64,000 bases of DNA, from the NCBI GenBank assembly GCA_021801385.1, contig JAJYYC010000002.1, positions 45,238-109,237 of the forward strand. The letters are read 5' to 3'. The stretch is from Candidatus Micrarchaeota archaeon. Lineage in GTDB: Archaea > Micrarchaeota > Micrarchaeia > Micrarchaeales > Micrarchaeaceae. Numbering within the stretch: the stretch's first letter is position 1; every line of letters begins with the position of its first letter. Shown piece after piece: positions 4,627 to 50,734 of this stretch. Position numbers and translations under genes: made by a program. The notes under the pieces were generated by a model. The model searched no databases. It was not told where the DNA came from and worked only from the letters and a program-made list of their open reading frames with translations.

Positions 4627-5481
4627 TTAACCGATTCCTGTTAGCGCAGTTATTATGCCGCTTAGTATCGCGATTATTCCAAGTATTAATACTATCTTGG
4701 TTATCACGTTTCTACCAGCGAACTTTAAGAGCATGTCTATCAAGAACAGGCTCAGTAACAGCGATGCAACTATGGCTATCGCAATCGTTGAATACCCTAT
4801 GTTTGAGATTGTTGTGGCGATAGGAACAGAGGAGAATAATATTGTAACAAGTGTCGCGCCAATTGTTGCGGGTATTCCTACAATGAATGAGAGCCTGAAT
4901 GCCTCTTCAGGATTGAATCCCATGAAGAGCAATGATGAGACTGTCACGCCTGACCTGCTTATGCCGGGAAATGCTGATATGCCCTGCACTATACCAACAA
5001 CTGCCATCTCGATTGATTTCATTCCGTGTATTGACTTACCTGAGTTGGTCCTAGGCCGTTTTCTGGCTGAATGAACTAATATTCCATCGACGATCAGCAG
5101 CAGGCCCAGCACGATCATAGGTATGCCCACCGCATATCCGCTGATGCTGGTCTCTATAAATTTGTATATTATTACACCGATTATCCCTGTGATCACAGTT
5201 ACAATAACCATATAGCGCAGTAGCTTGTTGTACTCAGGTGTGCCGCGACCCACTAATGCCTTTATAAGATTGTAGATGTCCTTCCTGAAGTATATTATTG
5301 CAGCAAGAACAGTACCGGCCTCAAGAAATAGGCCTATCGCATAGGACTGGGTAAGAGGCAGGTGGTAGAGAAAGGTTGTTGCAAGCATTATCTGCGTCTT
5401 GCTGCTGATCGGAAGCCATTCGCTGATCGCCTGCACTATGCCCAGTATGATGCCATTGATTATATGGGTTAAAGAGAACAT
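4627..5481 (-). CDS. uppP: undecaprenyl-diphosphatase (BacA/UppP family)
   Basis: Polytopic membrane protein with the SEWLPISSKTQI and PGISRSGVT motifs, corresponding to E-x-LP-x-SS and PG-x-SRSG of BacA. Confidence 0.85.
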   Translation of the reverse strand: MFSLTHIINGIILGIVQAISEWLPISSKTQIMLATTFLYHLPLTQSYAIGLFLEAGTVLAAIIYFRKDIYNLIKALVGRGTPEYNKLLRYMVIVTVITGIIGVIIYKFIETSISGYAVGIPMIVLGLLLIVDGILVHSARKRPRTNSGKSIHGMKSIEMAVVGIVQGISAFPGISRSGVTVSSLLFMGFNPEEAFRLSFIVGIPATIGATLVTILFSSVPIATTISNIGYSTIAIAIVASLLLSLFLIDMLLKFAGRNVITKIVLILGIIAILSGIITALTGIG

Positions 5482-5571
5482 ATTTATCGCATTATATTAA
5501 GAGGCAAGCTATTAAAGCGTTCAATATCTCCGCATGCATTCTAGTTGGTGCACAAATTTGAGACAGATTGG

Positions 5572-6189
5572 TTACCCTATTGGTGCCATCGGCGAACCAA
5601 GACCTCCACTCAAAGGCGCAAGAGCTGTTGCGGTGATAAAACCTAAGACGATAAACGCCATGGTTAAGAGAATGCACATGGTTACTATCATGACTACAGC
5701 GGATTCAGTGCGGTTTATCTTGTGTTGAGAAGCGAATGCGATCACAACCATTATGATGCTCCAGACTGCTATTATTCCGGTTATCGGTATCTTCAAAACA
5801 GGTACCTCTCCTATCCAGTACAACGATAAGAACGGAATGACCACAAATGTATAAGCCGCGAAGGATTTTGAATAATCTCCCCTCCATGCTTTGAGAAGGT
5901 ATTTGCCGATAAGATGGTAAATCGCCGCATCAATGAATATACCTATTGGTATTATTATCAGGTAGATTGCAGCAAGCAATATTGTTGTTTTTACATAAGA
6001 ACCGCTATAATTCAAAGCGGTGGAATGAGACATAGATAAGTATCCCATCACAAGCGCAAGGATTAGGCCTATGACAGCCACAGGATAATAGATTGAGAGC
6101 GCCTTTGGTATGCTTATCTTTCCAGAGCTCTCTTCGCCAGGATGGATAAGTGACATGAACCCGCGCTTCATATTATCATACAATCCCAT
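5572..6189 (-). CDS. polytopic membrane protein, Yip1-domain-like
   Basis: 205 aa with about 5 predicted TM helices after a short cytoplasmic N-terminus. The family assignment is tentative. Confidence 0.55.
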   Translation of the reverse strand: MGLYDNMKRGFMSLIHPGEESSGKISIPKALSIYYPVAVIGLILALVMGYLSMSHSTALNYSGSYVKTTILLAAIYLIIIPIGIFIDAAIYHLIGKYLLKAWRGDYSKSFAAYTFVVIPFLSLYWIGEVPVLKIPITGIIAVWSIIMVVIAFASQHKINRTESAVVMIVTMCILLTMAFIVLGFITATALAPLSGGLGSPMAPIG

Positions 6190-6443
6190 TGTAACACCAA
6201 AAATCTAAGCCATGCAAGATTTATATAGATAGAGGTAAGATGCTGCGCCATCTTGGGGAATGCCTTGCGCTGGCAGGATACGAGCACAGGATTTTTGGAA
6301 GATGGCATAGAATCTTTGCGCCAAAATACGCTTGATTTAAATAAATCTGTTTAAAGAGTTTAAAGGCATATATTTGTATAATGCGACAACGCCGCATACT
6401 AAATGTAAATTATAGTAGAGCCCAAACTAAGTAGAGTGATTTC

Positions 6444-6938
6444 ATGGAGGAAATGATAGATATCGTGGATTCAAATGACATAGTCATAGGGAGTGCTCCA
6501 CGCAAGGGTATACATGAAACACCAAAGCTGCACAGGGCTGCACACATATTTCTTTTCAATAGCGAAGGAAAACTCTGGCTGGAAAAGCGCGCGATGCATT
6601 GCGACAATTATCCTGGATATTATAGCTCGTCAGCTGCTGGGCATATAAGCAGTGGTGAGAGCTATCTTGAAGGGGCATCGCGCGAGGCGCAAGAGGAGCT
6701 TGGTATAACCGGACTAGAACTTAAGTTAGTTCATAAATTCCCAGTATCGAAGGAGTCTATTAACGAATTTATCATGCTCTATACTGCAGTGTCAGATAGT
6801 ATTCCGAAGCCATGCAAGGACACCGAACACTTCGATCTTTTTACCATAGATGAGATAAATAATATGATAGATAACAAAACCGAAAAGGTATCAGATTCTT
6901 TCGCAAGGCTGTTTAGATGGTATGTGGCTAAAATGTAG
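6444..6938 (+). CDS. Nudix hydrolase of the IPP-isomerase-like (COG1443) subgroup, lacking the IDI catalytic Cys
   Basis: Nudix box GHISSGESYLEGASREAQEELGI. Upstream, LHRAAHIFLFNSEGKLWLEKRA resembles type-1 IDI, but the IDI C-x-H position reads AAGH. Confidence 0.8.
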   Translation: MEEMIDIVDSNDIVIGSAPRKGIHETPKLHRAAHIFLFNSEGKLWLEKRAMHCDNYPGYYSSSAAGHISSGESYLEGASREAQEELGITGLELKLVHKFPVSKESINEFIMLYTAVSDSIPKPCKDTEHFDLFTIDEINNMIDNKTEKVSDSFARLFRWYVAKM

Positions 6939-7037
6939 CACACAATCAGACAATAATTGTAGGACTTTAGGCGCAATTATGCCAACCAGAACTGGTCTGG
7001 TGATATATACGCTTTATGACGTGGTCGCACAGTTTCT

Positions 7038-7049
7038 ATTTATATAATA
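7038..7049 (+). promoter_or_regulatory. TATA-box-like element upstream of the KaiC-like gene
   Basis: atttatataata lies about 30-40 nt upstream of ATG 7079/7085. Confidence 0.45.
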
Positions 7050-7078
7050 GATTAGTTAGATTTATGCGATCGGTTGGG

Positions 7079-7909
7079 ATGGCCATGGAACGATTAACTA
7101 CAGGAATACCGGGGTTAGACGATATTATGGGAGGCGGGATACCTCCAGGCTTTAACTTGCTTTTAGTTGGAGCTCCAGGAACAGGAAAAACCATAATGGG
7201 ACTTCAATATTTGTGTGGTGGGGCAAAAAAGGGAGAAATAGGCATGTATATTACGCTTGATTCCAGGGCAGACCAGGTAATAGAGCAAGGAAAGCAGTTT
7301 GATTGGGATCTCGAACGGCTCATGGCAGAAGGAAAAATAAGAATGCTCGAGATACCGCTGAACAAGCAGAAAAGAGTAGATATATTCAGAATGATAGAGG
7401 ACAAGGCAAAGGAGTGGGGTGTAAAAAGAATTGTATTTGACAGCCTATCTTCTTTCTTATTCAATATTAATCAATTCATAATAAATCTGCCAAAAATAGA
7501 TGACATGTCGACCATGCCGGAAGATCTCAAGAAATATATAGGAGAGGATCCAGTAACAAAACAGATGATACCTGAAACCCTTCAAAAGGATATGCCAGAC
7601 CCAAAGTTTTATTCAGGAGGAGAAGCAAACTTGGAAAAAAGAATTGTGTATTTAGCACTAAAAGAACTTGTGAAGGTTGGCACTACTAATTTTATAATAA
7701 CAAGTCAAAACACTTCTTCTAGTAATGAAAATCCAATTACAACTGACGGAGTTAGTGAATTTGTATCTGATGGTGTATTACACTTACATGCGGTTGAAGG
7801 TGAAGATGCATTTAATACATTAAATATATTAAAACTAAGACTTACAAAAGTAAATAGAGGCATATATAATTTTGATATATCGGAAAAGGGAATTTCAATT
7901 AAAAATTAA
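7079..7909 (+). CDS. KaiC/RecA-superfamily ATPase (single-domain archaeal KaiC-like)
   Basis: GIPGLDDIMGGGIPPGFNLLLVGAPGTGKT (Walker A) and RIVFDSLSS (Walker B). The ORF track starts at 7016, but I prefer ATG 7079 or 7085 because of the TATA box at 7038-7049. There is a roughly 50-aa insertion after Walker B. Confidence 0.8.
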   Translation: MAMERLTTGIPGLDDIMGGGIPPGFNLLLVGAPGTGKTIMGLQYLCGGAKKGEIGMYITLDSRADQVIEQGKQFDWDLERLMAEGKIRMLEIPLNKQKRVDIFRMIEDKAKEWGVKRIVFDSLSSFLFNINQFIINLPKIDDMSTMPEDLKKYIGEDPVTKQMIPETLQKDMPDPKFYSGGEANLEKRIVYLALKELVKVGTTNFIITSQNTSSSNENPITTDGVSEFVSDGVLHLHAVEGEDAFNTLNILKLRLTKVNRGIYNFDISEKGISIKN

Positions 7910-7931
7910 AACAAATTAGGCTAAGAATTAT

Positions 7932-8507
7932 ATGACAACATACATGTTTGACATGTTTAAGTTCTCACGCATGTTAGACATGAAAGATGGCCAATTAAGT
8001 CTTATGGGAACGCCGATAAGTATTGTGCCAACAGATCTTTTATGTGAACAGCAAAAAATGTTAATAGATACGCTTGGCATAGAAAAGGCATACGATAGTA
8101 TATATTCAGCATCAAAAAAAGGTGCATTTGAATATAATAATGAATTCATAAAAAAACAAAAATTTGAAGACAAAAAGAAAATTATTGACTGGCAAAAAAA
8201 AATTGTTACTTTTGCAGGATGGGGAGAGGTAGAAATAGCTTTATCAGATGTAAAAAATACAAAATTTGTATTTGTATTTAGAAACTCACCATATCCAAAA
8301 TCGTATGGTTCCGCAAAATATGCTGTTGATTTTGTAGCTTCAGGATTTGCAGCTGGGGGTTTAAGTGTTGTTTGTGGAGAGAATCTTGACGCAGTAGAAA
8401 TAAAGTGTATGGCGCGTGGTGATCCATTTTGTCAAATTGTTGTTGATAAACCAGAGATTGTAATGGACACAAAAATTAACCTGTGGAAAACTTGGGGAGT
8501 TCGTTGA
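7932..8507 (+). CDS. V4R-domain (4-vinyl-reductase-like) sensor protein with an XylR-N-like N-terminal part
   Basis: The C-terminal segment ASGFAAGGLSVVCGENLDAVEIKCMARGDPFCQIVVD matches the V4R signature (C...E..C.a.Gd..C.f.v). The gene starts 22 nt after the KaiC-like stop. Confidence 0.75.
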   Translation: MTTYMFDMFKFSRMLDMKDGQLSLMGTPISIVPTDLLCEQQKMLIDTLGIEKAYDSIYSASKKGAFEYNNEFIKKQKFEDKKKIIDWQKKIVTFAGWGEVEIALSDVKNTKFVFVFRNSPYPKSYGSAKYAVDFVASGFAAGGLSVVCGENLDAVEIKCMARGDPFCQIVVDKPEIVMDTKINLWKTWGVR

Positions 8508-9352
8508 GCTCTTTAATAGATATGTTGAAGATTACCGTCCCAGAGTATATGCCAGTTGGATTAATAGCCACATTAGTTGGTATGGCATATACCATTAATT
8601 TAACCTCTTTTAATATAAAAATGGTATATGCACTTTTGTCGGTCGCTTTCATTATTGCAGGTTATAATACTTATAATGCCATTGTGGATTTAGAAATAGA
8701 TAGAATAAATAAGCCAGATAGGCCATTGCCAAAAGCATTATTGACAATAAAAGATGCAAAATATATAACAATTATTTCATTTTTTATTAGTCTTGTATTA
8801 AGTTTATTAATAAATAAAATAGCTTTTCTTATTGCGTTAGTAACAATTACGTTATCGGTTTTATATTCATATAGACCAATTAATCTAAAGGGTAGATTCA
8901 TTTTAGGAACGTTAGCTGCTACAGTTCTTTATACAATTACATTTCCTTTAATCGGGTGGTCAGTTTCACAGTATAGTAAAATACCAATTCAAATAATTTT
9001 TTATCTGTTCGTTTTTGGATTAGTCGTTGCCATACTAAAAGATTTTGAAGATATAATAGGAGACAACCATTATGAAGCACACACAATAATAAGTTATTTA
9101 GGTTATACTAAAACAATAAAATTATTATTGCTACTTATTTTGTTTGGGATTATTTTAGTCATTGGTTTTGTTTATTATGGTTTTCTAAGTATCTATTACT
9201 TAGGTTTGCTAATATTTAGTTTATTATATCTATTAAACTTGTACTATTTAAATATGAATAAAACAACAAAACGTGCAAAACGTGCATTTATTTATAGCAT
9301 GGTTATAATGATCTTTATGGAAATATTTTTAATAGCTCTTAAACTTTTATAA
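8483..9352 (+). CDS. UbiA-family membrane prenyltransferase (DGGGP-synthase / BchG-ChlG-like)
   Basis: First Asp-rich motif NAIVDLEIDRINKPDRPLP and second motif ILKDFEDIIGD, with about 8 TM helices. The internal ATG at 8522 would remove the overlap with the V4R gene. Confidence 0.8.
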   Translation: MENLGSSLSSLIDMLKITVPEYMPVGLIATLVGMAYTINLTSFNIKMVYALLSVAFIIAGYNTYNAIVDLEIDRINKPDRPLPKALLTIKDAKYITIISFFISLVLSLLINKIAFLIALVTITLSVLYSYRPINLKGRFILGTLAATVLYTITFPLIGWSVSQYSKIPIQIIFYLFVFGLVVAILKDFEDIIGDNHYEAHTIISYLGYTKTIKLLLLLILFGIILVIGFVYYGFLSIYYLGLLIFSLLYLLNLYYLNMNKTTKRAKRAFIYSMVIMIFMEIFLIALKLL

Positions 9353-9364
9353 TTCACAATTTTA

Positions 9365-10414
9365 TTACCATGCATATTTCATGCCACCTTTAAATGCACG
9401 GATTATTTTTAGTAGATTAGGTAATAAGGAGGGGTATTTAAGCGCTTTTAGTTTAGTAGTTGTTGGAAGATTTAACAGATCTTTATCGTGAGTAAGTTTG
9501 CCTATTATTTCAAGTTCTTTTTGATTTAATGATAAAATAGTTTTCATCGCTAAACTATAGCTTTTTGAGAATGCAGGATGCGAACGTATTTTTTGTTCAT
9601 AGGAACTAGAAAATCCATTTTTTAAGCAATACGTAAGTATATCAGATGCATAAACGATAGCAGCCAGCCCTCCTTTGCTAAATGCGTTTGCCATACCTGC
9701 AGAATCTCCAACTAAAAAGTATTTGTCTTCGTGTATTTTAGAGCCATTAAATGGTATTGTGTAACCTTCTTTTTTAAGAATTTCTCCAGAAATTTTATAT
9801 TTTTTACAAAAGTTATCTAATTTTTTAAGATTTCCAATTACACCTACATTAAAGTAATCTTTTTTTGGAAAATTCCAACCGTATAAATCAGAGATGTCTA
9901 GATCCCAATAGAATTCTAATAAATCATGATTTTCCCAATCAAGCTTCATTTTATACTGCATTGCTGTACACATATCTACTTTTCCTCCTATTTTTTGTCT
10001 CACTTTTGATATGGGTCCGTCAGCACCAATTATAACGCTTTCGTTTAATTTAGACACATCTTTTATTTCTGAATTAAAAATTACTTGACCACCATTCTTT
10101 TCAAAATGTCTTCTAATTCCATCAATCCATTTTTCACGTTCTAACACATATCCATATTCATACGTAAATGTATAATAGTTACCAGGAAAAATGTTTTTTA
10201 ATCCGTCTATACTAGAAGAAAAATATGGTGCTGAGTCAAATCCTGTATCGTGCCTTAACTTTAAAATTGCAGTGTGTGAAATTCCTTCACCACAAGGTGT
10301 ACTAATAACCCGTTCGTTCTTTTCATATATTGTAACTTTAAAACCTGCTTTAACTAAGTAACTACCGGCTATTACACCGGCCGGTCCCCCGCCAATTATA
10401 CCAATGTCTTTCAT
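9365..10414 (-). CDS. FAD-dependent geranylgeranyl-reductase-family oxidoreductase
   Basis: N-terminal IGIIGGGPAGVIAGSYL (GxGxxG), YGWNFPKKDYFNVGV (GGR-type YxWxFPK motif) and LVGDSAGMANAFSKGG. Confidence 0.8.
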   Translation of the reverse strand: MKDIGIIGGGPAGVIAGSYLVKAGFKVTIYEKNERVISTPCGEGISHTAILKLRHDTGFDSAPYFSSSIDGLKNIFPGNYYTFTYEYGYVLEREKWIDGIRRHFEKNGGQVIFNSEIKDVSKLNESVIIGADGPISKVRQKIGGKVDMCTAMQYKMKLDWENHDLLEFYWDLDISDLYGWNFPKKDYFNVGVIGNLKKLDNFCKKYKISGEILKKEGYTIPFNGSKIHEDKYFLVGDSAGMANAFSKGGLAAIVYASDILTYCLKNGFSSSYEQKIRSHPAFSKSYSLAMKTILSLNQKELEIIGKLTHDKDLLNLPTTTKLKALKYPSLLPNLLKIIRAFKGGMKYAW

Positions 10415-10442
10415 TAGCTCAGTATAAATTAATCAAACTAAA

Positions 10443-10454
10443 CTATATAAATTT
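10443..10454 (+). promoter_or_regulatory. TATA-box-like element upstream of the mini-ORF
   Basis: ctatataaattt lies about 40 nt upstream of ATG 10495. The same CTATATAAAT core is seen upstream of the DUF929 gene. Confidence 0.35.
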
Positions 10455-10494
10455 ACCTGTCAAAATATTATTGAGTGAAATGAGGTGAATATTT

Positions 10495-10542
10495 ATGATA
10501 CTCCAAATGTTCGGTGGAGGTGCTAGTGGACCAGGAGGTTAA
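10495..10542 (+). CDS. 15-codon mini-ORF, MILQMFGGGASGPGG
   Basis: ATG 10495 is preceded by GAGGTGA (10482-10488, 6-nt spacer) and a TATA-like box, and the ORF ends at TAA 10540-10542. It is too short for the ORF track, and expression is unproven. Confidence 0.3.
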   Translation: MILQMFGGGASGPGG

Positions 10543-10554
10543 TTAAGCATAAGA

Positions 10555-11895
10555 TCATTCATATTTTTCTTTTTGACCTAATTTAAGTCCGTAGTTTTTT
10601 GTTAAAATATCGTAAATGTTAGTATAGGTAGGGTCAAAATTTCTATAGCAAAATTCACCTAATATAATATTTGTTACAACTAAACTTTCGGTTCTAGAAC
10701 CGCTAATGTTGCTCAAAATATTATCCGTAGATGCAATATCATGTTCATTAAATATCGGTGTTATATGTAGCACACCATCTGGTATACCAATATCCTCGGC
10801 AAATAAGTACTTGTTTATTATTCCCCGTTTTGATATAAGTTCTAATAGCCATTTTTGACGGGATTCACTAAATAATTTATAATTGTTTATTTTCATTATA
10901 AAAATTCCGTTAAATTTAAAACCTATTGGTTTTATTGTTATTGTTGTTCTGTTAATTATACCCTTGGTTTTTAATTTATAGAAAATATAGTTTGTGTGTC
11001 CGCTTTCCAACCCTAATTTTCGATCGATGTTTCTAAACTCTTCGTTGCCGTTTTTAACTAGCTCGTTCATAACTTTGCATTCTAATTTTCCAAACCATTT
11101 ATTTATTTTGTTTTTTTCCGCGCTTTGTTTAACCATTTCAAGAAACGGGTTGCGAGGCATTATCACACTTGATTCAGAAGTAAATGTTATGCTCAAATAC
11201 ATTTCAGCGGAATAATTTCTTAATATAGTTTGGCTCCTTAGTTCGTAAAAAAATTTAGATAACGATTCGTCTTTTTTCATATAAAAAATAATTATTAGAT
11301 TAAATTCCCCTTTTGTTTCTGCAATTAATATAACATTGGGATTATTTTCAAATTCTGCTTTTAATTCCGAAGGGCTCGGTTTTTGTTCTAAAAATTTAGC
11401 CAATACAACATAAGTATGGTACCCTAGATTAAATGTATTTATATCTGCAAAATATCTTATTTTATATTTAGCCTCCAGCCGCTTAACAAAGTGCCTTGTT
11501 CCTGTCACCGACATTCCAATCCTTTTTGATAGCAGGTTCATGCTCATCCTGCCGTTCATGCTCAGGTTCCTGATTGCTATTTCCTCACGTTTATCATATT
11601 CCTCGTTACCAAAGGTTTGCTGTGTTTTGTTCTTTGATTCCAAACTAGCTAACTGTCGCTGCTCCTTCGATAAGTATTTGCCTTCATTGGTTATGTGTCC
11701 TATGTAGTATGTCTTTACTATTGTCTTTCTTCTGACATTGTCCCTTACTGTTTCATATTCGTAGACGTAGTAATGGTTGTTTATTTTATGCAGCGAAAGT
11801 TTCTTGCCGAGTTCCTGCTTAAGCGCATCAAATGTGTCTTGCACTTCCTTTGGCGTTTCTCTCATTTGCACCATTTTAATTGCATAAATACCCAT
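10555..11895 (-). CDS. large transcription regulator with two Lrp/AsnC-like (HTH + ligand-binding) modules
   Basis: 446 aa. IRNLSMNGRMSMNLLSKRIGMSVTGTRHFVKRLEAKYKIRYFADIN (HTH_AsnC-like) is followed by a RAM-like segment. A second HTH-like segment is VMNELVKNGNEEFRNIDRKLGLESGHTNYIFYKLKTKGII. The N-terminal 90 aa are unassigned. Confidence 0.6.
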   Translation of the reverse strand: MGIYAIKMVQMRETPKEVQDTFDALKQELGKKLSLHKINNHYYVYEYETVRDNVRRKTIVKTYYIGHITNEGKYLSKEQRQLASLESKNKTQQTFGNEEYDKREEIAIRNLSMNGRMSMNLLSKRIGMSVTGTRHFVKRLEAKYKIRYFADINTFNLGYHTYVVLAKFLEQKPSPSELKAEFENNPNVILIAETKGEFNLIIIFYMKKDESLSKFFYELRSQTILRNYSAEMYLSITFTSESSVIMPRNPFLEMVKQSAEKNKINKWFGKLECKVMNELVKNGNEEFRNIDRKLGLESGHTNYIFYKLKTKGIINRTTITIKPIGFKFNGIFIMKINNYKLFSESRQKWLLELISKRGIINKYLFAEDIGIPDGVLHITPIFNEHDIASTDNILSNISGSRTESLVVTNIILGEFCYRNFDPTYTNIYDILTKNYGLKLGQKEKYE

Positions 11896-12267
11896 ATTTA
11901 TGGTTTTTGTGTGAGTTATGATTTAACCAAACATTGTTAATGTAGGAAAAGTTTTGTAAATCTTTTCAGTTTAGTTGAAATTTTGATTTTTGGTTTTTTA
12001 TTTGTGTATTGGGTGGTTGTGTGTTATTTTTCAGAGTATGTAACATAACGGAATTGGACAAAAACTTTATATATGATTCAGGCTACAAATCTTTTGTTAG
12101 TATGTGCCAATATGCCCCTGGAAAAAGTGGAGTACTCATTCTTATCCGCTGGCGTTAGCTACGCTATCGTAACTGAAAGGCGCAATCTTGTAAAATGGCA
12201 TGTCGGAGAGGCATGTTTTCAATTTTAGTGGTTACTTAGCCCCCGAGCTATGCTTTAGTTAGGTGTA

Positions 12268-13536
12268 ATGATGGAAAACAAAAATAACAACAAAAAAATA
12301 TATTCAACAAGTGAAGTATCTGGGATGCTTCGTGGCTTAGGCAGTGGATATCATGGATCGAACAATTTTCCGAATTTTGTTCTTAGAGATTATTTGAGGC
12401 TGAATAAGCCCCTCTCTTTTGAGTTAGGGTATTCGGTTGGGTTATTTGCAATATATCCTGGGAACGCGGCGCTGATGCAGGATAAAAACCTTCAAAACCT
12501 ATTTGGGAAGCCGGAACTTGCTAAGATCCAATCAAATGCACTATTATCCTCACTTTATAACAGAGCAACAATGGAGCACGGGCATGAGCAGCTCGCAGGA
12601 ATTGTGGCATCTGTTATAGATTATGACATAGGTGGCTCTCAACATGTGAAGTTATCTCCTTTATCAGAAGTTGTCTGCGATAATTGTGGGACAGGAGGAG
12701 ATAGGATAGGAACCTTTCACATAAGCACAATTGCTGCGTTTATAGCGGCTGCGCATGGCATGAGAATGGCAAAGCATGGATCACCAGGAAATGCAAGACA
12801 GTCCGGCAGTAGCGATATGATAAACGCACTTGGCATAGACAATATGCCAGAACCAAATAAAGTAGAGCGGGCTATAGATAATGTCGGGTTTGCTTATATA
12901 GAAGCACTGGACACCCGTTATAAAAGTATACACGTACAGACCCATGAATTTGCCAGATTTGCACATATGAACGACATAATAGGGCCAATGACGAATCCCG
13001 TAGACCCATCAAAACTACAGATAAAGCTTTTAGGAACCAACGCCATAGTGAGCCCGATAACGATAGCACTTGCTTATAAGAAGCTGAACGAACTTGGTGT
13101 GACAAACATCAAAAGGGGGCTTTTTGTAAGAGGATACCTTAATGGTGACACTACGATCACAACAGATGAGGTATCAATAATGAGAGGAGGCACGGAGGCG
13201 GCCCTGTTAGATAATGGCAGAATAACCAAAATGCACATTAATTTCAGCTCGTTTGGATTTGAACACCCCGTTCGCGTAGAAGACATACGCCCGAGATATA
13301 ACACGAAAGACGGAAGAATAGGGTATTCGTTAGAAGTTATTAATGGCAATGCACCGAATGGGGCAATCAATACATTGCTGGCCAATTCAGCCGCCATAAT
13401 TGCACTAAACATGGAAAAGATCGATTTTATTGAGGCTACAAAGATGGCTGAAACCGTATTTAAGTCTGGAGGTCATATTGATATAATAAATAGCGTAAAA
13501 ACCGCACTGCCATTGAGGGAAGAGGTTGTTTTGTGA
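12268..13536 (+). CDS. glycosyl-transferase family 3 protein (anthranilate phosphoribosyltransferase-like, divergent)
   Basis: CDNCGTGGDRIGTFHISTIAAFIAAAHGMRMAKHGSPGNARQSGSSDMINALGI aligns with the TrpD core D.xGTGGD..TFNiST...KHGNRs.SS.sGSaD.leaLG. The NRS segment is replaced or expanded. Confidence 0.75.
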   Translation: MMENKNNNKKIYSTSEVSGMLRGLGSGYHGSNNFPNFVLRDYLRLNKPLSFELGYSVGLFAIYPGNAALMQDKNLQNLFGKPELAKIQSNALLSSLYNRATMEHGHEQLAGIVASVIDYDIGGSQHVKLSPLSEVVCDNCGTGGDRIGTFHISTIAAFIAAAHGMRMAKHGSPGNARQSGSSDMINALGIDNMPEPNKVERAIDNVGFAYIEALDTRYKSIHVQTHEFARFAHMNDIIGPMTNPVDPSKLQIKLLGTNAIVSPITIALAYKKLNELGVTNIKRGLFVRGYLNGDTTITTDEVSIMRGGTEAALLDNGRITKMHINFSSFGFEHPVRVEDIRPRYNTKDGRIGYSLEVINGNAPNGAINTLLANSAAIIALNMEKIDFIEATKMAETVFKSGGHIDIINSVKTALPLREEVVL

Positions 13537-14369
13537 ATATCAGAAACATGTTCAGGTCAAAAAAGCCAGTTATAGGAGCCCTGCATTTCATGCCCCTTCT
13601 CGGATATCCAGGGTTCAGAGGTTTGGACATTGTTTTGGCCGCTGCCGTGAAGGATCTGCACGCATTGCAAGATGGAGGTATTGATGGGATAATACTTGAA
13701 AACAACTATGATATACCACACAAGATAAGCGTTGGTCCGGAGACTATTGCTTCAATGACATACCTATGCTCAGAACTCGCCAAGATTTCAACCGTGCCGT
13801 TAGGGGTAAGCGTACTTTGGAATGACTTTAAGGCTGGCTTGGCAATAGCTAAGGTTATTGGAGCAAAGTTTGTGAGGGTTCCAGTATTTGTGGACGACGT
13901 TGAAACGGATTTTGGCATAATATATTGCAACCCGAAGGAGGTTTTAGATTACAGATCCAATTTGGGTGCTGATGATGACATTGCAATTTTTGCAGACATA
14001 CAGGTAAAGCACGCAAGAATGTTAAAGAGCGTGCAGATAGAGGAGTCGGCAGCGTTGGCCCAGTCTCAAGGTGCTGATGCGATAATAGTTACGGGCAAAT
14101 GGACTGGTGATGCACCGTTGGTTGCGGATATTAAAAGGGCAAAATCCGCTGTTAAGATACCAGTACTTGTGGGCAGCGGCATGGATATTAACAATGCTGC
14201 TGAGCTCTTAACATATTCTGATGGGGCGATAGTGAGCACTTCGGTGAAAAATGACGAGATCGCATCTGCGAATGAGAGAAATGTGAAATCATGCAACAGT
14301 AGGGTAAGCAAAGATAAAGTAAAAATGCTCATGAACGAAGTAAAAAGTATTATTCATGCCGATAACTAA
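13533..14369 (+). CDS. BtpA/SgcQ-family predicted TIM-barrel protein
   Basis: KPVIGALHFMPLLGYPGF ... LQDGGIDGIILENNYDIP matches the BtpA signature (iG.vHl.PLpGsP ... GvDgiivEN..D.P). The GTG start overlaps the upstream stop (GTGA). Confidence 0.7.
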   Translation: MNIRNMFRSKKPVIGALHFMPLLGYPGFRGLDIVLAAAVKDLHALQDGGIDGIILENNYDIPHKISVGPETIASMTYLCSELAKISTVPLGVSVLWNDFKAGLAIAKVIGAKFVRVPVFVDDVETDFGIIYCNPKEVLDYRSNLGADDDIAIFADIQVKHARMLKSVQIEESAALAQSQGADAIIVTGKWTGDAPLVADIKRAKSAVKIPVLVGSGMDINNAAELLTYSDGAIVSTSVKNDEIASANERNVKSCNSRVSKDKVKMLMNEVKSIIHADN

Positions 14370-14443
14370 TGCTCTTTTTCATCATCCATTTTATATGATT
14401 TTATTCTGAAGATTTTGGCGTTGGCGATTTACCCTTAACACAA

Positions 14444-15307
14444 TCAGATGTTGCGCTCGCGTATTTTGTGCCCCAGTTCCTTTGCCTTTGCGCGCAGATG
14501 GTGCCTCATTTCCTCTGTCTTGGGTTTTATGTGAATTCCCATGGGCTTTGTTGGTATTCCTTCATCCTCTAACCCTTTTACCTTATTAGGGTTGTTAGTC
14601 ATGAGAAGCACTGAATTGACTCCGATAGATTTAAGCATCTCTGCTGCGATCATGAACGAACGCCCTTCGTTTTTAAGGCCCATTTTTAAGTATGCTTTGT
14701 ATACGCTCAGAGGTTTTCCTGATTTGTCCTTCCTTTCGGTTATGCGTCCTTTGTTCCACTCGAACACCATATTGTAGGCCTTGACCTTTGCAGCCAGCCC
14801 GTATCCTGCGCCCTCCTGGTCCAGATACACCAAAACCCCTCTCCCTTTTCTTCGTATCTGTCGCATCGCCTTATCCAGTTCCTCTCTGCACTCGCAGTTT
14901 GTCGCATGGAAGAGCTCGCTGGTCTCGCACTTCGAATGCACCCTTACCAGTACGTTCTTCCCATCTCCAAGAGAACCGTTCTTGTAGTCCCCGTACACGA
15001 GCGCCGAATGCAGCGCGCCGGTGGTGTAGTCTCCGAATATCAAGTATGTCCAATTACCGAATTGCGTATGAAGGGGTGTCGATGCCAGAAGCTTAGATGC
15101 CCCATGACCTCCTCTTGTCAGGGATAATCTGGCGTTTTCTTCCTTTACCCATGGTTTCTCCCAGCGCACCTCAGTATCAATTATCCATTGCGGTTTGCTT
15201 TTTTCATAGGCCATAAAATCCTTGCAGTAAGATAGTCTTTGCATTAAATAGCTATATGCCTTTACCCATCGGTTTCTTATGGAGGCATAGATATGATCTT
15301 TTGCCAA
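14444..15307 (-). CDS. GTP cyclohydrolase II (RibA)-like protein with a roughly 110-aa N-terminal extension
   Basis: VRVHSKCETSELFHATNCECREELDKAM keeps the three zinc Cys of RibA (HSEC...CDCG.QL). GRGVLVYLDQEGAGYGL and LLMTNNPNKV follow. The sequence is divergent (EGRGIGL becomes EGAGYGL, plus an internal insertion). Confidence 0.7.
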   Translation of the reverse strand: MAKDHIYASIRNRWVKAYSYLMQRLSYCKDFMAYEKSKPQWIIDTEVRWEKPWVKEENARLSLTRGGHGASKLLASTPLHTQFGNWTYLIFGDYTTGALHSALVYGDYKNGSLGDGKNVLVRVHSKCETSELFHATNCECREELDKAMRQIRRKGRGVLVYLDQEGAGYGLAAKVKAYNMVFEWNKGRITERKDKSGKPLSVYKAYLKMGLKNEGRSFMIAAEMLKSIGVNSVLLMTNNPNKVKGLEDEGIPTKPMGIHIKPKTEEMRHHLRAKAKELGHKIRERNI

Positions 15308-24041: not shown

Positions 24042-24178
24042 TGGGGTTGCAGGGATTTGAACCCTGACCAACAGGTTACTTCATATTATCCGACTTCCAG
24101 ATTACTGTCATCGCTTTTCGCTCGCATGTCAAATAAACATCTGGAGCCTGCTACGCTGCCAAGTTACGCCACAACCCC
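24042..24178 (-). tRNA. tRNA-Trp (anticodon CCA) with an intron of about 64 nt at the canonical 37/38 position
   Basis: Read by hand. The acceptor is GGGGTTG/CAACCCC, the T arm is CAGGG-TTCAAAT-CCCTG, the anticodon stem is GCAGG/CCTGT and the loop is CU-CCA-G. Intron CTGGA pairs with TCCAG of the anticodon loop, as in bulge-helix-bulge substrates. No encoded CCA. Confidence 0.85.
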
Positions 24179-32599: not shown

Positions 32600-34570
32600 A
32601 TGCCGAATAGTCCGCAGCATAGGGTAGAGACAGGTTCATGGGAAGTGCTCATTGAGATCAATAGCAAAAGGCCTGAGGACACATCCGCAGATCCTTCTGA
32701 GAAGGTGCTTGCGCCTTATCACAGGACCATGGAGGAGATCGAGCGCATGCCGGTTGTAGAGAAGACCATGACCGTCTGCCCTGAATGCAAGCTCGTCATA
32801 AATGGCATACTGTACAAGGACGGAGATAACGTAATGATAAGGAAGTTCTGCCCGGAACACAAGTGGACTGTTGAGAAGTACTGGGAGGACTATGATATGT
32901 ATATGAAGATGAAGCGCTACAACTATTTCGGAAGAGGCTTCGAGAATCCTAATTATATAACAGAGACGAAGGGTGCGAACTGCCCATTTGACTGCGGCAT
33001 GTGCGAAAGGCACAAGTCGCACACCGGCCTTGCGAATGTAGTGATAACGAACAGATGCCACTTATCGTGCTGGTACTGCTTCTTCTATGCGAAGGAAGGA
33101 GAGCCGATCTACGAACCCGGCCTTGACGAGATCAGAAAGACGTTCAGGAACCTGCGCAGCCAGAAGCCGATACCTGCGAATGCGATACAGATAACAGGCG
33201 GCGAACCGATGATGCACCCGCACATCATAGATGTGGTGAAGATGGCAAAAGAGGAAGGATTTGACCAGATACAGCTAAACACCACAGGTATAATAATAGG
33301 ACAGAATCCCGAGATGGCATACCAGCTCAAGCACGCTGGCGTTAGCACACTCTACATGAGCTTTGACGGTGTCAGCAAGAGGGCCAACCCGAAGAACCAC
33401 TGGGAGGTTCCCCTAACGCTTGAGGCGATGAGGAAAGCGGGCGGCAACGTGGTTATGGTGCCTACGGTAATAAGGACCATAAACGACCATGAGCTTGGGG
33501 CGATGATAAACTTCGCAATCAACAACATAGACGTTGTCAGGGCGGTGAACTTCCAGCCTGTTTCGCTTGTGGGCCGTATGCCAACAAGGCTAAGGGAGAA
33601 GCAGCGCATAACGATACCTGGAGCGATAAAACTGATCGAGGAGCAGACCAACGGCGTGATAAGGAAGGAACACTGGTTCTCTGTCCCTTATGTCGGAGGA
33701 CTTAACAAGTTCATAGAGGCGCTCACCGGCGAATTCAAGTACGATCTCTCTATACACTTCGCATGCGGCGCTGGCGCATACATATTCATCGATAGCGACA
33801 ATAAGATAGTGCCGCTCACAGAATTCCTCGATGCGCCTGGCCTGCTCGAACACCTGCAGAAGGCGATAAACGAGATGGATGGAAAGGGCAAGATTATGAG
33901 ACGTGCGATCGCAGTCAGGGCGCTCCTCGGAGTTGGCAAGTTCATAGACAAGAAGAAGCAGCCAAAGAGCGTCAACTTTATGAAGATGCTCATGTCGCTC
34001 TTCCTGAAGCATGACTTCGCAACGATGGGTAAGATACAGATGAAGAGCCTCTTCCTTGGCATGATGCACTTCCAGGATGAATACACCTATGATATACACA
34101 GGGTCGAGAAGTGTGACATACACTATGCGATGCCTGATGGAGAAGTGCTGCCATTCTGCACGTTCAACGTATTCCCTGAGGTATACAGAGACAAGGTACA
34201 GAAGCAGTACAGCATACCGACCAGCGAATGGCAGAAGACGCACAATAACTGGACGTATTCAAAGGACAAATACATGAGGGACGTCAAGGCGCTAGAGCAG
34301 ACACCGCAGTACATCAAGACCTATGGGAGCCTTATAGATTACTTTGCTCTTCCGGTGAACGGAGGCAAGGCGGTCAGTTCATTCAGCAGGCCGACAGAGC
34401 CGCAGAAGGTTGCGGTTGTCGCGACAAACGCTGGAAAGACCGAGCAGGTCGAAGAGACTGCCTCACCAGCACAGGCGGTCCATTCGGATCATGCAGAAGG
34501 CGATTCGTGTGGATGCGGATCTGGTGGTTGCGGCTGCGGAAATGACAGCTGCGGATGTGGCAGCTGTTAA
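32600..34570 (+). CDS. radical SAM enzyme homologous to tetraether lipid synthase (Tes / GDGT-MAS, MJ0619 family) with a C-terminal (Cys-Gly)n tail
   Basis: N-terminal zinc ribbon CPECKLV...KFCPEHKW, then CPFDCGMCERHKSHT and the radical-SAM site NRCHLSCWYC (CxxxCxxC). The tail is DSCGCGSGGCGCGNDSCGCGSC. The Tes assignment rests on remembered family architecture. Confidence 0.7.
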   Translation: MPNSPQHRVETGSWEVLIEINSKRPEDTSADPSEKVLAPYHRTMEEIERMPVVEKTMTVCPECKLVINGILYKDGDNVMIRKFCPEHKWTVEKYWEDYDMYMKMKRYNYFGRGFENPNYITETKGANCPFDCGMCERHKSHTGLANVVITNRCHLSCWYCFFYAKEGEPIYEPGLDEIRKTFRNLRSQKPIPANAIQITGGEPMMHPHIIDVVKMAKEEGFDQIQLNTTGIIIGQNPEMAYQLKHAGVSTLYMSFDGVSKRANPKNHWEVPLTLEAMRKAGGNVVMVPTVIRTINDHELGAMINFAINNIDVVRAVNFQPVSLVGRMPTRLREKQRITIPGAIKLIEEQTNGVIRKEHWFSVPYVGGLNKFIEALTGEFKYDLSIHFACGAGAYIFIDSDNKIVPLTEFLDAPGLLEHLQKAINEMDGKGKIMRRAIAVRALLGVGKFIDKKKQPKSVNFMKMLMSLFLKHDFATMGKIQMKSLFLGMMHFQDEYTYDIHRVEKCDIHYAMPDGEVLPFCTFNVFPEVYRDKVQKQYSIPTSEWQKTHNNWTYSKDKYMRDVKALEQTPQYIKTYGSLIDYFALPVNGGKAVSSFSRPTEPQKVAVVATNAGKTEQVEETASPAQAVHSDHAEGDSCGCGSGGCGCGNDSCGCGSC

Positions 34571-44678: not shown

Positions 44679-47516
44679 ATGTCGCTTGGTGGATTTATGG
44701 CGAATAAAATAAGGAAAAGGGACGGCTCTGTTGTTGATTTTGACGCTTCTAAGATAAAAGCAGCTGTTGCTAAGGCTATCGGCGCGGTCCGCGGCGGCGT
44801 TGTGGATGCCGAGCTGAACAAGATCATGTCGCTTGTGATATCAGACATCGACGCCACATATAAGTCCTCTAACGTTGAGGTGGAGGGCGTTCAGGATATA
44901 GTTGAGCAGTGCCTGATGAAAGCCGGTTACTATGACGTGGCAAAGGCATACATACTATATAGGGAGAGGCATGCCGAGATCCGCAAGGAGAGGAGAAACG
45001 AGACGCTTAAGAGCATTGAGGAGAAGCGCATGTTTGTCGTCAATGCGGATGGTCAGAGAGAGCTTTTCGACGAGCAGCGGCTGAGGCGCTTCATCAGCGA
45101 GGCTTGTGCAGGATACGAAGGCGTTGTTAATGTCGAGGAGATATTAGTACAGTGCGAATCAGGTGTGCATGACGGCATGCACACAAAGGATGTCGCAGAG
45201 CTCGCTGTTATGACAGCGCGCGGCTTTATAGAGCGCAATCCTTTATACGATACAATCACATCACGCCTGTTCCTTTCGAATCTATATTATGAAGCGACAG
45301 GAAAGAGAGAGCATGACCCTGCTGCGGCTTTCGCTTCCAACATAAGGCTTGCTGTGAGTCAGGGCAGGCTGGATCCTGAGATTCTTAAGTTCGACCTTGA
45401 TAGGCTCTCCAAGGAGCTGGTGGTTGAAAGGGATGAGCTCATACCTTACAGGGGTCTGCAGACGCTATATGACAGGTATTTCATCTCAGACATATCAAAT
45501 AAACGCGTTATAGAGACGCCGCAGTCGTTCTGGATGCGCGTTGCTATGGGTCTGGCGATTAATGAGAAGAACAGAGACGATCGTGCTATAGAGTTTTATG
45601 GTGTGCTCTCAAGGATAGAGTTTGTGAGCTCCACTCCGACGCTCTTCCATTCGGGCACGATGCACCCTCAGATGAGCTCATGTTACCTGACGACCATACA
45701 GGATGACCTTGTTGACATATTCAAGTCGTATTCTGATAACGCACAGCTTTCGAAGTGGTCCGGAGGTGTCGCAAACGACTGGGGCAACATAAGGGCTACG
45801 GGCGCATACATAAAGTCAACGGGCGTAGAGAGCCAGGGTGTCATACCGTTCCTTAAGATCGCAAATGATGTGACGGTGGCGATAAACAGGAGCGGAAAGC
45901 GGCGCGGTGCGACATGCTCATACATAGAGGCATGGCACGCAGACGTTGAGGATTTCATAGACCTGCGCAGGAACACGGGAGACGAGCGCAGAAGGACGCA
46001 TGACATGAACATTGCATTGTGGGTGCCTGACCTTCTTGTCAAGCGCGTGATCTCCGATGGCGAATGGACTCTGTTCTCGCCCGATGAGGTGCCTGAGCTA
46101 CACCACATATACGGACGTAAGTTTGAGGACGCATATTCAGAATACGAGAAGGCGGCTGGCGAGGGCAGGATAAGACTGTTCAAGCGCATGAAGGCGAGGG
46201 ATATCTGGAAGAAGATACTCACACAGCTTTACGAGACTGGCCATCCATGGATAACGTTCAAGGATCCTTCCAACATAAGGTCTCCGCAAGACCATGTTGG
46301 GGTTGTGCACAACTCTAACCTCTGCACAGAGATAACATTAAACACCTCTAAGGATGAAACAGCTGTCTGCAACCTGGGGTCGCTCAACCTATCAAAGCAC
46401 ATAACAGATGGCAAGCTGGACATGGAAAAGATCGCGAGAAGCGTAAAGACCGCTATGCGCATGCTCGACAACGTGATAGACCTTAATTATTACCCAACGG
46501 TTGAGGCAAAAAGATCTAACATGAGGCACAGGCCGGTAGGTCTGGGTATCATGGGCTTCCAGGATGCGCTCTACATGATGGGTATAAACTTCGCATCCGA
46601 AGATGCTGTCAAATTCGCTGATGAGAGTATGGAGCTCATATCATACCATGCTATAATGGCATCTTCAGAGCTTGCTGCTGAACGTGGTGCATACGAAACA
46701 TTCAAGGGATCGAAGTGGGATAGGGGCATATTCCCTATAGACACATTAGACCTGCTCGAACAGGAACGTGGCATAAAGATAAATGTGGCAAGGACATCCA
46801 CGCTTAATTGGGAGCCTGTGCGCGAATCGGTCAAAAAGAATGGCATGAGGAACTCAAACTGCATGGCGATAGCACCAACAGCTACAATATCTAACATCGC
46901 TGGCTGCTTCCCATCAATAGAGCCGATATACAACGAGGTATATGTGAAATCCAACATGAGCGGGGAGTTCACAGTGGTTGACAGGTATCTTGTGGAGGAC
47001 CTCAAGAAAGAGGGCCTATGGAACAAACACATTCTCGAAGAGATAAAAGCCAGCGACGGCACGATACAGAACATAAACGCAATACCTACACGGATAAAGG
47101 AGAGGCACAAGAACGCTTTTGAGATCGAGCCTGAGTGGCTGATAAAGATAGCCGCATATAGGGGTAAGTGGATAGACCAGAGCCAATCCCTAAACATATT
47201 CACCAACACCACATCGGGCAAAAGGCTTTCTGAGATCTACCTGAATGCATGGATGATGGGGCTTAAGACCACCTATTATCTTAGGACGCTCGCAGCATCT
47301 TCTATAGAGAAGAGCACGGTCAGCATAAACAGGCAGACAACCAAGGCTGCTGGCACCCAAGAAGCAGAGGCCGTAGCGCAGATTGTCGTAGAATCGGTGA
47401 GCGGGGCAACAGAGGATGTTCACCAATCAGTAGAAGAAAAGAAGCTTGATGCTTCTGAGGGCTTTGAGATAAAGGCTTGTAAGATAGAAGATCCGGATTG
47501 CGAAGCATGCCAATAG
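44679..47516 (+). CDS. nrdA: class I ribonucleotide reductase alpha subunit with an N-terminal ATP-cone
   Basis: ATP-cone IRKRDGSVVDFDASKI, active-site SNLCTEI, and C-terminal Cys pairs (ACKIEDPDCEAC). Confidence 0.9.
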   Translation: MSLGGFMANKIRKRDGSVVDFDASKIKAAVAKAIGAVRGGVVDAELNKIMSLVISDIDATYKSSNVEVEGVQDIVEQCLMKAGYYDVAKAYILYRERHAEIRKERRNETLKSIEEKRMFVVNADGQRELFDEQRLRRFISEACAGYEGVVNVEEILVQCESGVHDGMHTKDVAELAVMTARGFIERNPLYDTITSRLFLSNLYYEATGKREHDPAAAFASNIRLAVSQGRLDPEILKFDLDRLSKELVVERDELIPYRGLQTLYDRYFISDISNKRVIETPQSFWMRVAMGLAINEKNRDDRAIEFYGVLSRIEFVSSTPTLFHSGTMHPQMSSCYLTTIQDDLVDIFKSYSDNAQLSKWSGGVANDWGNIRATGAYIKSTGVESQGVIPFLKIANDVTVAINRSGKRRGATCSYIEAWHADVEDFIDLRRNTGDERRRTHDMNIALWVPDLLVKRVISDGEWTLFSPDEVPELHHIYGRKFEDAYSEYEKAAGEGRIRLFKRMKARDIWKKILTQLYETGHPWITFKDPSNIRSPQDHVGVVHNSNLCTEITLNTSKDETAVCNLGSLNLSKHITDGKLDMEKIARSVKTAMRMLDNVIDLNYYPTVEAKRSNMRHRPVGLGIMGFQDALYMMGINFASEDAVKFADESMELISYHAIMASSELAAERGAYETFKGSKWDRGIFPIDTLDLLEQERGIKINVARTSTLNWEPVRESVKKNGMRNSNCMAIAPTATISNIAGCFPSIEPIYNEVYVKSNMSGEFTVVDRYLVEDLKKEGLWNKHILEEIKASDGTIQNINAIPTRIKERHKNAFEIEPEWLIKIAAYRGKWIDQSQSLNIFTNTTSGKRLSEIYLNAWMMGLKTTYYLRTLAASSIEKSTVSINRQTTKAAGTQEAEAVAQIVVESVSGATEDVHQSVEEKKLDASEGFEIKACKIEDPDCEACQ

Positions 47517-50322: not shown

Positions 50323-50323
50323 C

Positions 50324-50396: not shown

Positions 50397-50456
50397 TTCT
50401 GTTTATTTTTTAGATAGGCGTAAATATCTTTTCTGAATAATTATATTGATGATAAT

Positions 50457-50696: not shown

Positions 50697-50734
50697 TCTT
50701 AGCGGTTTATCTAAAACCGCTAAGATTCAGCGGT

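Follow-up and report, generated by a model that had tools for sequence, protein, structure and literature searches.

Introduction

The last steps of archaeol synthesis are carried out by digeranylgeranylglyceryl phosphate synthase (DGGGPS), a membrane prenyltransferase of the UbiA superfamily, and by the lipid geranylgeranyl reductase (GGR). In the chlorophyll systems the same two superfamilies serve for the attachment and the saturation of the tail, and here BchG (ChlG) and BchP (ChlP) are encoded together with BchJ, a V4R-family protein that has been proposed to be a substrate carrier and not an enzyme. We analysed a locus of a Candidatus Micrarchaeota archaeon (assembly GCA_021801385.1, contig JAJYYC010000002.1, positions 45,238 to 109,237) where genes for a KaiC-like ATPase, a stand-alone V4R protein, a UbiA prenyltransferase, a GGR-family reductase and an Lrp-like regulator lie side by side in an AT-rich block. 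The whole stretch of 64,000 nucleotides is called the window, and positions refer to it unless another contig is named.

V4R domains are also found in the phenol sensors PoxR, MopR and DmpR and in stand-alone proteins such as MJ1460. The fold, which has a homologue in the lipid-binding TRAPP subunit Bet3, is considered to bind hydrophobic ligands (PMC2253512). KaiC-like ATPases have been proposed as archaeal signal transduction hubs (Makarova, Galperin and Koonin 2017, as relayed in PMC5847659). Micrarchaeota have an incomplete lipid synthesis, rely on or share the lipids of their hosts and have acquired lipid-pathway genes by transfer (PMC8975820).

The locus has the UbiA and GGR superfamilies in common with archaeol synthesis, a pathway for which no V4R or KaiC partner is known. 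It has V4R, UbiA and GGR in common with the BchJ/BchG/BchP system, where the carrier role of BchJ parallels the one that we propose for the V4R protein; the chlorophyll system, however, is not known to have a KaiC-like ATPase, and the carriers of the present module are DPANN archaea, which are not known as phototrophs. As in the KaiC hubs, a single-domain ATPase of the KaiC/RecA superfamily stands beside, or is fused to, a small-molecule-binding input domain, here V4R. The output is apparently a membrane prenyltransferase and not a transcriptional, two-component or motility output. The module is built from known families whose association is apparently undescribed. An earlier note, made from the letters of the window, knew of no such cassette either, and no relevant pairing of KaiC with UbiA or another prenyltransferase, or of V4R with a prenyltransferase, was found in the searchable full-text literature, where an earlier mention is still possible.

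Results and discussion

The KaiC, V4R and UbiA genes are adjacent in many lineages

In about 14 independent lineages, genes for a KaiC-like ATPase and a stand-alone V4R protein were found next to one for a UbiA prenyltransferase of a distinct clade, and the flanking genes are unrelated in every one of these lineages. At each readable neighbourhood of a UbiA relative (contigs L007, L011 and L014) the order KaiC>V4R>UbiA was observed, on one strand and with tight spacing. When species-representative genomes were scanned with the V4R alignment, five further triad loci (L016 to L020) came to light, including loci in metagenome-assembled genomes (MAGs) of Micrarchaeota and Iainarchaeum. In L110 the genes are arranged as V4R>UbiA><KaiC beside a polyprenyl synthase, with a V4R 37% identical to that of the window, and in L113 as UbiA>V4R (V4R 30% identical). 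A V4R relative of 34% identity stands alone in L112.

The reductase accompanies the module in the window and in at least five other lineages. Every reductase relative of at least 49% identity with readable flanks adjoins the other three genes, and both order and strand are shuffled. The window has the layout KaiC>V4R>UbiA><GGR, L025/26 has KaiC>UbiA>V4R>V4R>GGR, L029 has KaiC>V4R>GGR>UbiA, and in L027/28 UbiA<V4R<V4R< is followed by >GGR and then by <KaiC. The short contigs L030 and L060 carry fragments of the L027 arrangement. Because the linkage survives inversion and reordering, it is strong evidence for a functional coupling of the four genes.

The linkage of KaiC and V4R to a prenyl-transfer and prenyl-reduction pair, on which the earlier note had focused, is therefore non-random: the adjacency proved to be conserved elsewhere, and it recurs in many lineages in shuffled order. 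The five-gene cassette envisaged there was reduced to a core of KaiC, V4R and UbiA, which the reductase joins in a subset of lineages, while the regulator is not a dedicated member. No tetrapyrrole or quinone biosynthesis gene was found beside any of the about 14 modules, and a GGGPS, GGPPS or CarS gene accompanies none of them except at L110.

The polyprenyl diphosphate synthase gene adjoining the L110 module (L110 2258-4669) is split by an intein with a LAGLIDADG endonuclease. A gene for an ATPase of the HerA/TraG type (DUF87) lies directly upstream of the module in two unrelated lineages (L019 254-2509 and L025 5439-6785), and this may hint at a link to conjugative or integrated elements.

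Features of the four module proteins

The five family assignments of the earlier note were upheld by Pfam and NCBIfam, with the regulator as a helix-turn-helix (HTH), Lrp-like protein. Its coordinates were exact as well: the KaiC stop codon ends at 7909, the V4R gene extends from the ATG at 7932 to a stop ending at 8507, and UbiA and the reductase converge with a gap of 12 nucleotides, the UbiA stop ending at 9352 and the stop codon of the reductase beginning at 9365.

The KaiC-like protein (281 residues, 7064..7909, forward strand) is a single-domain P-loop ATPase of the RecA superfamily. It was matched by PF06745 with 158.4 bits (cut-off 26.6) and by KaiC in a PDB profile search at 1e-60. 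Its Walker A motif reads GAPGTGKT and its Walker B motif RIVFD, and across 12 lineages G36, G39 and K42 of Walker A, D126 of Walker B, K257 and R259 are invariant. ATP binding is likely from these motifs. The position of the catalytic Glu-Glu is occupied by Glu in most lineages, by Asp-Ser in the subclade of the window and by Lys in L029; in the PDB profile alignment, FEE of KaiC is aligned with LDS of the window protein. The protein is not a circadian-clock KaiC proper, since it has one domain, lacks the Glu-Glu and scored 122 on NF006799 against a cut-off of 408. A TATA-box-like element, TTTATATAA, was read at 7039..7047 on the forward strand, 16 nucleotides upstream of the KaiC ATG. This element and the choice of the gene callers make 7064 a likelier start than 7016. 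The box would be the promoter of a KaiC-V4R-UbiA operon, and its spacing to the ATG suggests that the operon transcript is leaderless or has a short leader.

The stand-alone V4R protein (191 residues, 7932..8507, forward strand) matched PF02830 with 34.8 bits (cut-off 31), and the homologues of other modules score alike. In the PDB profile search PoxR 5fru was found at E 2e-5 and 5kbe at E 4e-3, and MopR was also found. Both the amino-terminal and the carboxy-terminal parts were aligned, so that the whole protein resembles the sensor domain of PoxR, MopR and DmpR; in contrast to these it stands alone, without an AAA+ or HTH output. Among 12-16 lineages, G96-W97-G98, E156, C159 and C167 do not vary, and D133 hardly does. 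E156, C159 and C167 keep the E-x2-C-x7-C spacing of the PoxR/MopR zinc site, and Asp133 replaces the first Cys; the ligands of MopR we take, with their numbering, to be Cys/Glu/Cys/Cys. The four residues D133, E156, C159 and C167 thus form a putative metal-site-like set. The subfamily is scarce, with 5 representative clusters at E<=1e-30 among 1.84 billion. A single-sequence AlphaFold2 model reached a pLDDT of 32.6 and was discarded.

An exhaustive search revealed fusion proteins among more distant V4R homologues. P0319 combines KaiC with one V4R domain, and P0229 and P0254 combine KaiC with two, which mirrors the KaiC+V4R+V4R gene sets of L025 and L027. These fusions are Rosetta-stone evidence, independent of UbiA, that KaiC and V4R probably act as a physical or functional pair. 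Tandem V4R paralogues are present in the same two lineages (L025 8759-9934, L027 8728-9875) and recall the heterodimers of the Bet3 family. The V4R proteins of L025 are only 21-24% identical to that of the window, though the L025 reductase is 78% identical, and this points to fast change after the duplication or to a mosaic history.

The UbiA-superfamily prenyltransferase has 276 residues when read from the ATG at 8522 (8522..9352, forward strand), and GTG 8483 is an alternative start. Both candidates had been named in the earlier note and were upheld; the gene caller's start at 8549 is not favoured because it would cut off a conserved VPEY(I/M)P motif. PF01040 was matched with 112 bits (cut-off 34.2). 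Both Asp-rich motifs (NxxxDxxxD and DxxDxxxD), which are also those of archaeal DGGGPS, are intact, with N52, D56, D60, D174, D177 and D181 invariant in 14 lineages. The top match among solved structures was DGGGPS of M. jannaschii (6m31, 1e-24), followed by chlorophyll synthase (8e-19). Every NCBIfam cut-off was missed, with a wide margin both for DGGGPS (93 vs 296 bits on NF009521, 72 vs 353 on NF009522) and for (bacterio)chlorophyll synthase (74 vs 313 on NF005742, 61 vs 212 on TIGR01476). The UbiA proteins of other modules scored 83-103 bits on the DGGGPS models and 79-106 on the ChlG/BchG models, and overall the module proteins reached up to 121 bits on DGGGPS-like and ChlG models alike. 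The genes of these UbiA proteins are always linked to V4R, and in a neighbour-joining tree the proteins form a single clade apart from the DGGGPS-like, 4-hydroxybenzoate and homogentisate prenyltransferases; this tree and that of the reductases are rough and carry no bootstrap values. The protein is rare, with just five clusters above 35% identity in 5.8 billion proteins.

The reductase (349 residues, 9365..10414, reverse strand) is a compact flavoprotein of the geranylgeranyl reductase family, 40-100 residues shorter than characterised GGRs. A TATA-box-like element, TTTATATA, was read at 10444..10451 on the reverse strand, 29 nucleotides upstream of its ATG, and the reductase would therefore have a promoter of its own, apart from the regulator gene that lies upstream. 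The motifs GxGxxG, PCGEG with the catalytic Cys, YxWxFP and GDxAG are invariant or nearly so in 13 sequences, which means that the Cys, YxWxFP and FAD motifs of the archaeal enzymes are kept. An AlphaFold2 model calculated on the family alignment was of high confidence (pLDDT 91.7, pTM 0.90), and its seven top Foldseek matches are all archaeal GGRs with TM-scores of 0.72-0.80, including the Sulfolobus GGR and, at 0.80, Ta0516 (3oz2); flavin monooxygenases followed at about 0.6. On TIGR02032 the reductase scored 116.7 bits, below the cut-off of 158.8, and its relatives in other modules about 120, compared with 184 for a GGR from a lipid cluster. It failed the cut-offs of the digeranylgeranylglycerophospholipid reductase models (45 vs 580 on NF041080, 42 vs 780 on NF041160) and matched the BchP/ChlP models with 75-77 bits, again below their cut-offs. 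The family comprises about 14 clusters of 49-87% identity, one of them labelled Micrarchaeota, before the identity drops to 36% or less. The module reductases form a single clade in their tree, apart from the GGRs of lipid clusters and from stand-alone GGRs.

The DGGGPS/GGR and BchG/BchP contexts suggested in the earlier note were thus confirmed for the superfamilies and not for specific orthology, since the module proteins lie below the curated cut-offs and form their own clades.

The lipid cluster just mentioned (L046 4865-13104, also in L051, L055 and L044) encodes GGR, PcrB/GGGPS, a polyprenyl synthase and a DGGGPS-like UbiA alongside bacterial-type FakA/DegV and PlsY. In L046 the UbiA and synthase genes are separated by an inserted IS605 OrfB/TnpB gene. 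The cluster resembles the mixed bacterial-archaeal set of lipid genes reported for bacteria of the FCB group (PMC7852524).

Proposed function of the module

We lean towards a module for the transfer and saturation of prenyl chains, in which the V4R protein would bind a hydrophobic substrate or product and, with the ATPase, gate or feed the membrane enzyme. In detail, UbiA would attach the chain of a polyprenyl diphosphate to a hydrophobic membrane acceptor. The chain would probably be C20, because the nearest characterised relatives are DGGGPS, chlorophyll synthase and homogentisate phytyltransferase, and a polyprenyl-diphosphate donor fits since a polyprenyl synthase adjoins the L110 module. 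The reductase would saturate the prenyl chain. The V4R protein, with its predicted PoxR/MopR-like pocket and metal site, would bind a hydrophobic substrate, product or related signal and, paired with the KaiC-like ATPase, would gate or feed the prenyltransferase. The Lrp-like regulator would be a lineage-specific transcriptional addition. As a whole, the module would finish or remodel isoprenoid, ether-lipid-like compounds from scavenged precursors, which is the most economical role because Micrarchaeota lack a complete lipid synthesis and depend on host lipids. That the acceptor is specifically a glycerol ether is a tentative suggestion.

Several points weigh against this proposal. The mechanism and the presumed substrates of these clades are deduced from sequence, and the V4R pocket is a prediction from a sequence alignment. 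The similarity of UbiA to chlorophyll synthase and to DGGGPS is nearly equal and cannot name the acceptor. With Asp-Ser in place of Glu-Glu in the window KaiC, and Lys in L029, ATP hydrolysis may be weak or absent. Lastly, about nine triads have no reductase in the available flanks; the reductase is therefore optional or separable, or it lies elsewhere in those genomes.

The two enzymes could simply be the housekeeping DGGGPS and lipid GGR of archaeol synthesis, with KaiC and V4R as incidental or loosely regulatory neighbours. The M. jannaschii enzyme as the top structural match, DGGGPS-like prenyltransferases as the top NCBIfam matches, the GGR motifs and fold of the reductase and the absence of a second UbiA or GGR copy in the window would all fit, and a genuine ether-lipid cluster, L046, has the same convergent UbiA-GGR geometry. 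However, the UbiA of L046 obtains 238 bits for DGGGPS, and the GGR encoded with it clears the TIGR02032 cut-off, whereas the module proteins fall far short of the equivalog cut-offs and separate from the DGGGPS-like and lipid-cluster groups. The linkage to V4R and KaiC also outlasts the shuffling of gene order, GGGPS, GGPPS and CarS are missing alongside except at L110, and a family this rare is unusual for a housekeeping enzyme. We regard this explanation as unlikely. Still less probable, in our view, is an attachment of tails in the manner of BchJ, BchG and BchP, where V4R would carry a tetrapyrrole, quinone or aromatic acceptor, UbiA would prenylate or esterify it and the reductase would saturate the tail. 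The three families are those of the chlorophyll proteins, chlorophyll synthase is the second-best PDB match of UbiA, some module UbiAs score at least as high on ChlG as on DGGGPS (106 vs 89 in L025, 104 vs 102.5 in L019), the reductase is matched by the BchP/ChlP models, and the V4R protein resembles sensors of aromatic ligands. Yet the ChlG, BchG and BchP scores are all far below the cut-offs, the modules have no tetrapyrrole or quinone genes beside them, and DPANN archaea are metabolically reduced and not known as phototrophs.

Little credence is also given to a purely signalling cassette, with V4R and KaiC sensing a hydrophobic signal and acting through the Lrp-like regulator, and with UbiA and the reductase as mere targets. 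KaiC-like ATPases as signalling hubs, in so far as that proposal is relayed in PMC5847659, agree with it, as do V4R sensor domains in regulators (PoxR/MopR and the TrmB-V4R fusion P0310), the KaiC-V4R fusions and the Lrp-type genes near three modules. Against it, most modules lack the regulator, whereas nearly all have UbiA adjacent to V4R. Moreover, V4R and KaiC have no DNA-binding domain here, and a stoichiometric complex with UbiA is suggested by genes that lie close together or overlap. More specific than the prenyl-transfer module that we favour is the idea that KaiC and the Bet3-like V4R form a device for the ATP-driven hand-off of host-derived isoprenoid or lipid intermediates onto the prenyltransferase and reductase. 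We hold it to be quite improbable. If true, the module would be a transferable lipid-finishing kit with which DPANN symbionts auxotrophic for lipids construct or modify membranes of their own, and it would give the first concrete function for the stand-alone archaeal V4R proteins, the proposed ancestors of Bet3.

The module bears on the ways in which DPANN archaea with incomplete lipid pathways acquire or finish their membranes, on the roles of stand-alone, Bet3-like V4R proteins and on the signalling targets of the single-domain KaiC-like ATPases that abound in archaea. Through it, V4R and KaiC are linked to a specific enzyme, a membrane prenyltransferase, which a prenyl reductase may or may not accompany. 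The UbiA and GGR proteins define two uncharacterised enzyme clades, whose products may be new isoprenoid lipids.

A defence system was also considered and rejected, as PADLOC gave only weak P-loop and HTH matches.

The module lies in an AT-rich block

The five genes lie in a segment of low G+C content at 7422..12103 (GC about 0.31 vs 0.46 in the rest of the window), which was delimited by a likelihood-ratio scan, 60-nucleotide bins, GC profiles and the G+C content at third codon positions (GC3). The deepest AT-rich core extends over about 7424-11445. Per 1 kb the GC content is 0.28-0.36 over 7001-12000 and 0.40-0.53 in the rest of the window, and the mean G+C per 60-nucleotide bin is 18.7 in the block and 27.8 outside (Mann-Whitney p = 8e-36). 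The 5-kb window with the lowest GC content of the whole 64 kb begins at 7251 (0.317). The GC3 of the five block genes is 0.21-0.32, compared with 0.52±0.07 (minimum 0.365) in the remaining 55 open reading frames (ORFs), so that within the 64-kb window the block deviates as a horizontally acquired island would. These values bear out the sharp compositional break of the earlier note, whose four counts were exact to the letter (15/60 at 9061-9120, 9/60 at 10861-10920, 32/60 at 33001-33060 and 30/60 at 45001-45060).

The left compositional break falls within the KaiC gene and not at its start. GC3 is near the host values in the outermost 120 or so codons of KaiC (7064-7423) and in about 150 codons of the regulator (11446-11895). 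The independent contig L005 terminates at window position 7409, 13 nucleotides from the computed break. The graded edges together with this contig end may be recombination junctions left by the exchange of a cassette's core. In KaiC the GC3 break is near codon 120, but the nearest relative switches near residue 200 in a segment-wise comparison of similarity that is ambiguous; a fast-evolving carboxy-terminus of the L025 KaiC may be an alternative cause of the switch.

An assembly chimera was ruled out. Contigs of five sequencing runs and of the NCBI MAG GCA_027340205.1 match the window over those parts of the island and its junctions that each of them covers. The five run contigs are identical to it, and the MAG contig has one mismatch in 20.4 kb. 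The island and both junctions are spanned by L001, L002 and L004.

Origin of the block

Horizontal acquisition is plausible from the composition, and we think it probable that the block was acquired by a genome of about 46% GC from a DPANN relative of lower GC content. Any transfer was probably within DPANN, because the host itself is a DPANN archaeon of the Micrarchaeota type. In four hosts of moderate GC content the module is AT-richer than its flanks, namely in the window, in L011 (0.40 vs 0.62), in L025/26 and in L027. Module and host have the same GC content in the low-GC DPANN contigs L016, L019 and L020 and in L029 (GC about 0.50), and in L007 the module is GC-richer than its flanks. 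If the evidence for transfer holds, the module is an example of the exchange of metabolic gene cassettes among episymbiotic archaea.

A number of observations argue against such an acquisition. As the earlier note had stated, no mobility gene or target was found: there is no recombinase, integrase or transposase among the five block genes, no tRNA within 12 kb of the block and no credible repeat at its boundaries, where the search gave only short AT-rich chance matches. No V4R relative was found in viral contigs or phages, and the only plasmid case is a partial V4R on a Peribacillus plasmid. The flanking genes have no relatives closer than 46-52% identity, and these have only the TrpD-like/BtpA gene pair in common with the window; they are too distant for a comparison with an empty site. 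The named carriers also belong to a single superphylum, which leaves vertical inheritance with rearrangement as a possible history.

According to the latter, the block would be an old, vertically inherited trait of Micrarchaeota or DPANN in a rearrangement-prone region and not a recent island, its AT-richness stemming from weak selection on codon usage, low expression or a local mutation bias. The lack of mobility genes, tRNA target, repeats and viral, phage or plasmid relatives is in keeping with this, and the closest named relatives of the reductase are Micrarchaeota, as is the host. The low GC content is kept in lineages whose reductases have diverged to 55-78% identity, which would be odd for independent recent arrivals, and GC3 grades towards host values at both edges. 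On the other hand, the GC3 of the block is lower by 3-4 standard deviations than that of all 55 remaining ORFs of the window, each lineage has different, unrelated genes around the module, and a HerA/TraG-type ATPase abuts it in two lineages. A composition matching that of the host is seen in L016, L019, L020 and L029 only, with the module GC-richer in L007 and AT-richer in the four moderate-GC hosts. We therefore consider a purely vertical history rather unlikely. An origin as mobile-element or phage cargo was rejected, since PHROGs gave only generic RecA/DnaB similarity and V4R had no viral or phage relatives.

Regulator and surroundings of the block

The regulator (446 residues, 10555..11895, reverse strand) was matched by HTH_24 with 31 bits, by the NCBIfam Lrp model at 2.8e-11 and by the Lrp/AsnC structure 2w25 at 3.5e-6. 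In residues 1-95 no known domain was matched. Residues 96-260 are Lrp/AsnC-like: HTH_24 passes its cut-off, AsnC_trans_reg scores 13.7 against 25, and Lrp proteins of the PDB align over 134 residues. Residues 261-446 show only a weak winged HTH of the TrmB/AsnC type (18-20 bits). An internal duplication was rejected, as the two halves have no significant similarity to each other. Near another module, a relative of this regulator was found only in L026, as a partial ORF with 29% identity (E 1e-16 to 1e-19); the L019 triad has a small Lrp/AsnC gene at a distance of 1 kb. Of the dedicated double-Lrp regulator claimed before, the first Lrp half was thus retained and the second is weak, and conserved membership in the module was not supported, related genes being found only near L026 and L019. 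Judged by its distribution, the regulator is lineage-specific and lies outside the conserved unit.

No second UbiA, GGR, V4R or KaiC copy was found within the 64-kb window. Directly left of the island and with host composition (4627-6938) are genes for a BacA/UppP undecaprenyl-diphosphatase, a Yip1-domain membrane protein and an IDI/YfcD-like Nudix protein, the last of which scores below the IPP-isomerase cut-off. The neighbours of the island thus include isoprenoid-related genes.

A second, milder GC dip (0.40-0.42) is present at 50000-53300 beside a tRNA-Pro (50324-50396). The 566-residue ORF at 51564-53264 in this dip and a 1100-residue ORF at 59593-62895 gave no Pfam match. Genes of archaeal character in the window encode an intron-containing tRNA, a ThrRS editing-domain protein, PAC2 and a family B DNA polymerase. 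The tRNA is a stretch of 137 nucleotides on the reverse strand (24042-24178) that was detected by Rfam (48 bits) and missed by ARAGORN; it is likely to be an archaeal tRNA with an intron.

Immediately next to the island lies a gene for a TrpD-like protein of the glycosyltransferase-3 family, which is paired with BtpA. The nearest named relatives of the TrpD-like protein are from Candidatus Micrarchaeota/Micrarchaeales (47-49% identity) and its best relatives reach 52%; further relatives are found in other DPANN archaea and then in Patescibacteria. The pair (12325-15307) is conserved across DPANN archaea and Patescibacteria and here adjoins a GTP-cyclohydrolase-II-like gene. In a related archaeon (L021 2611-6370) a HincII-like restriction endonuclease, an N6 methyltransferase and a DDE transposase adjoin the same pair, and this region is rearrangement-prone in the relatives of the host.

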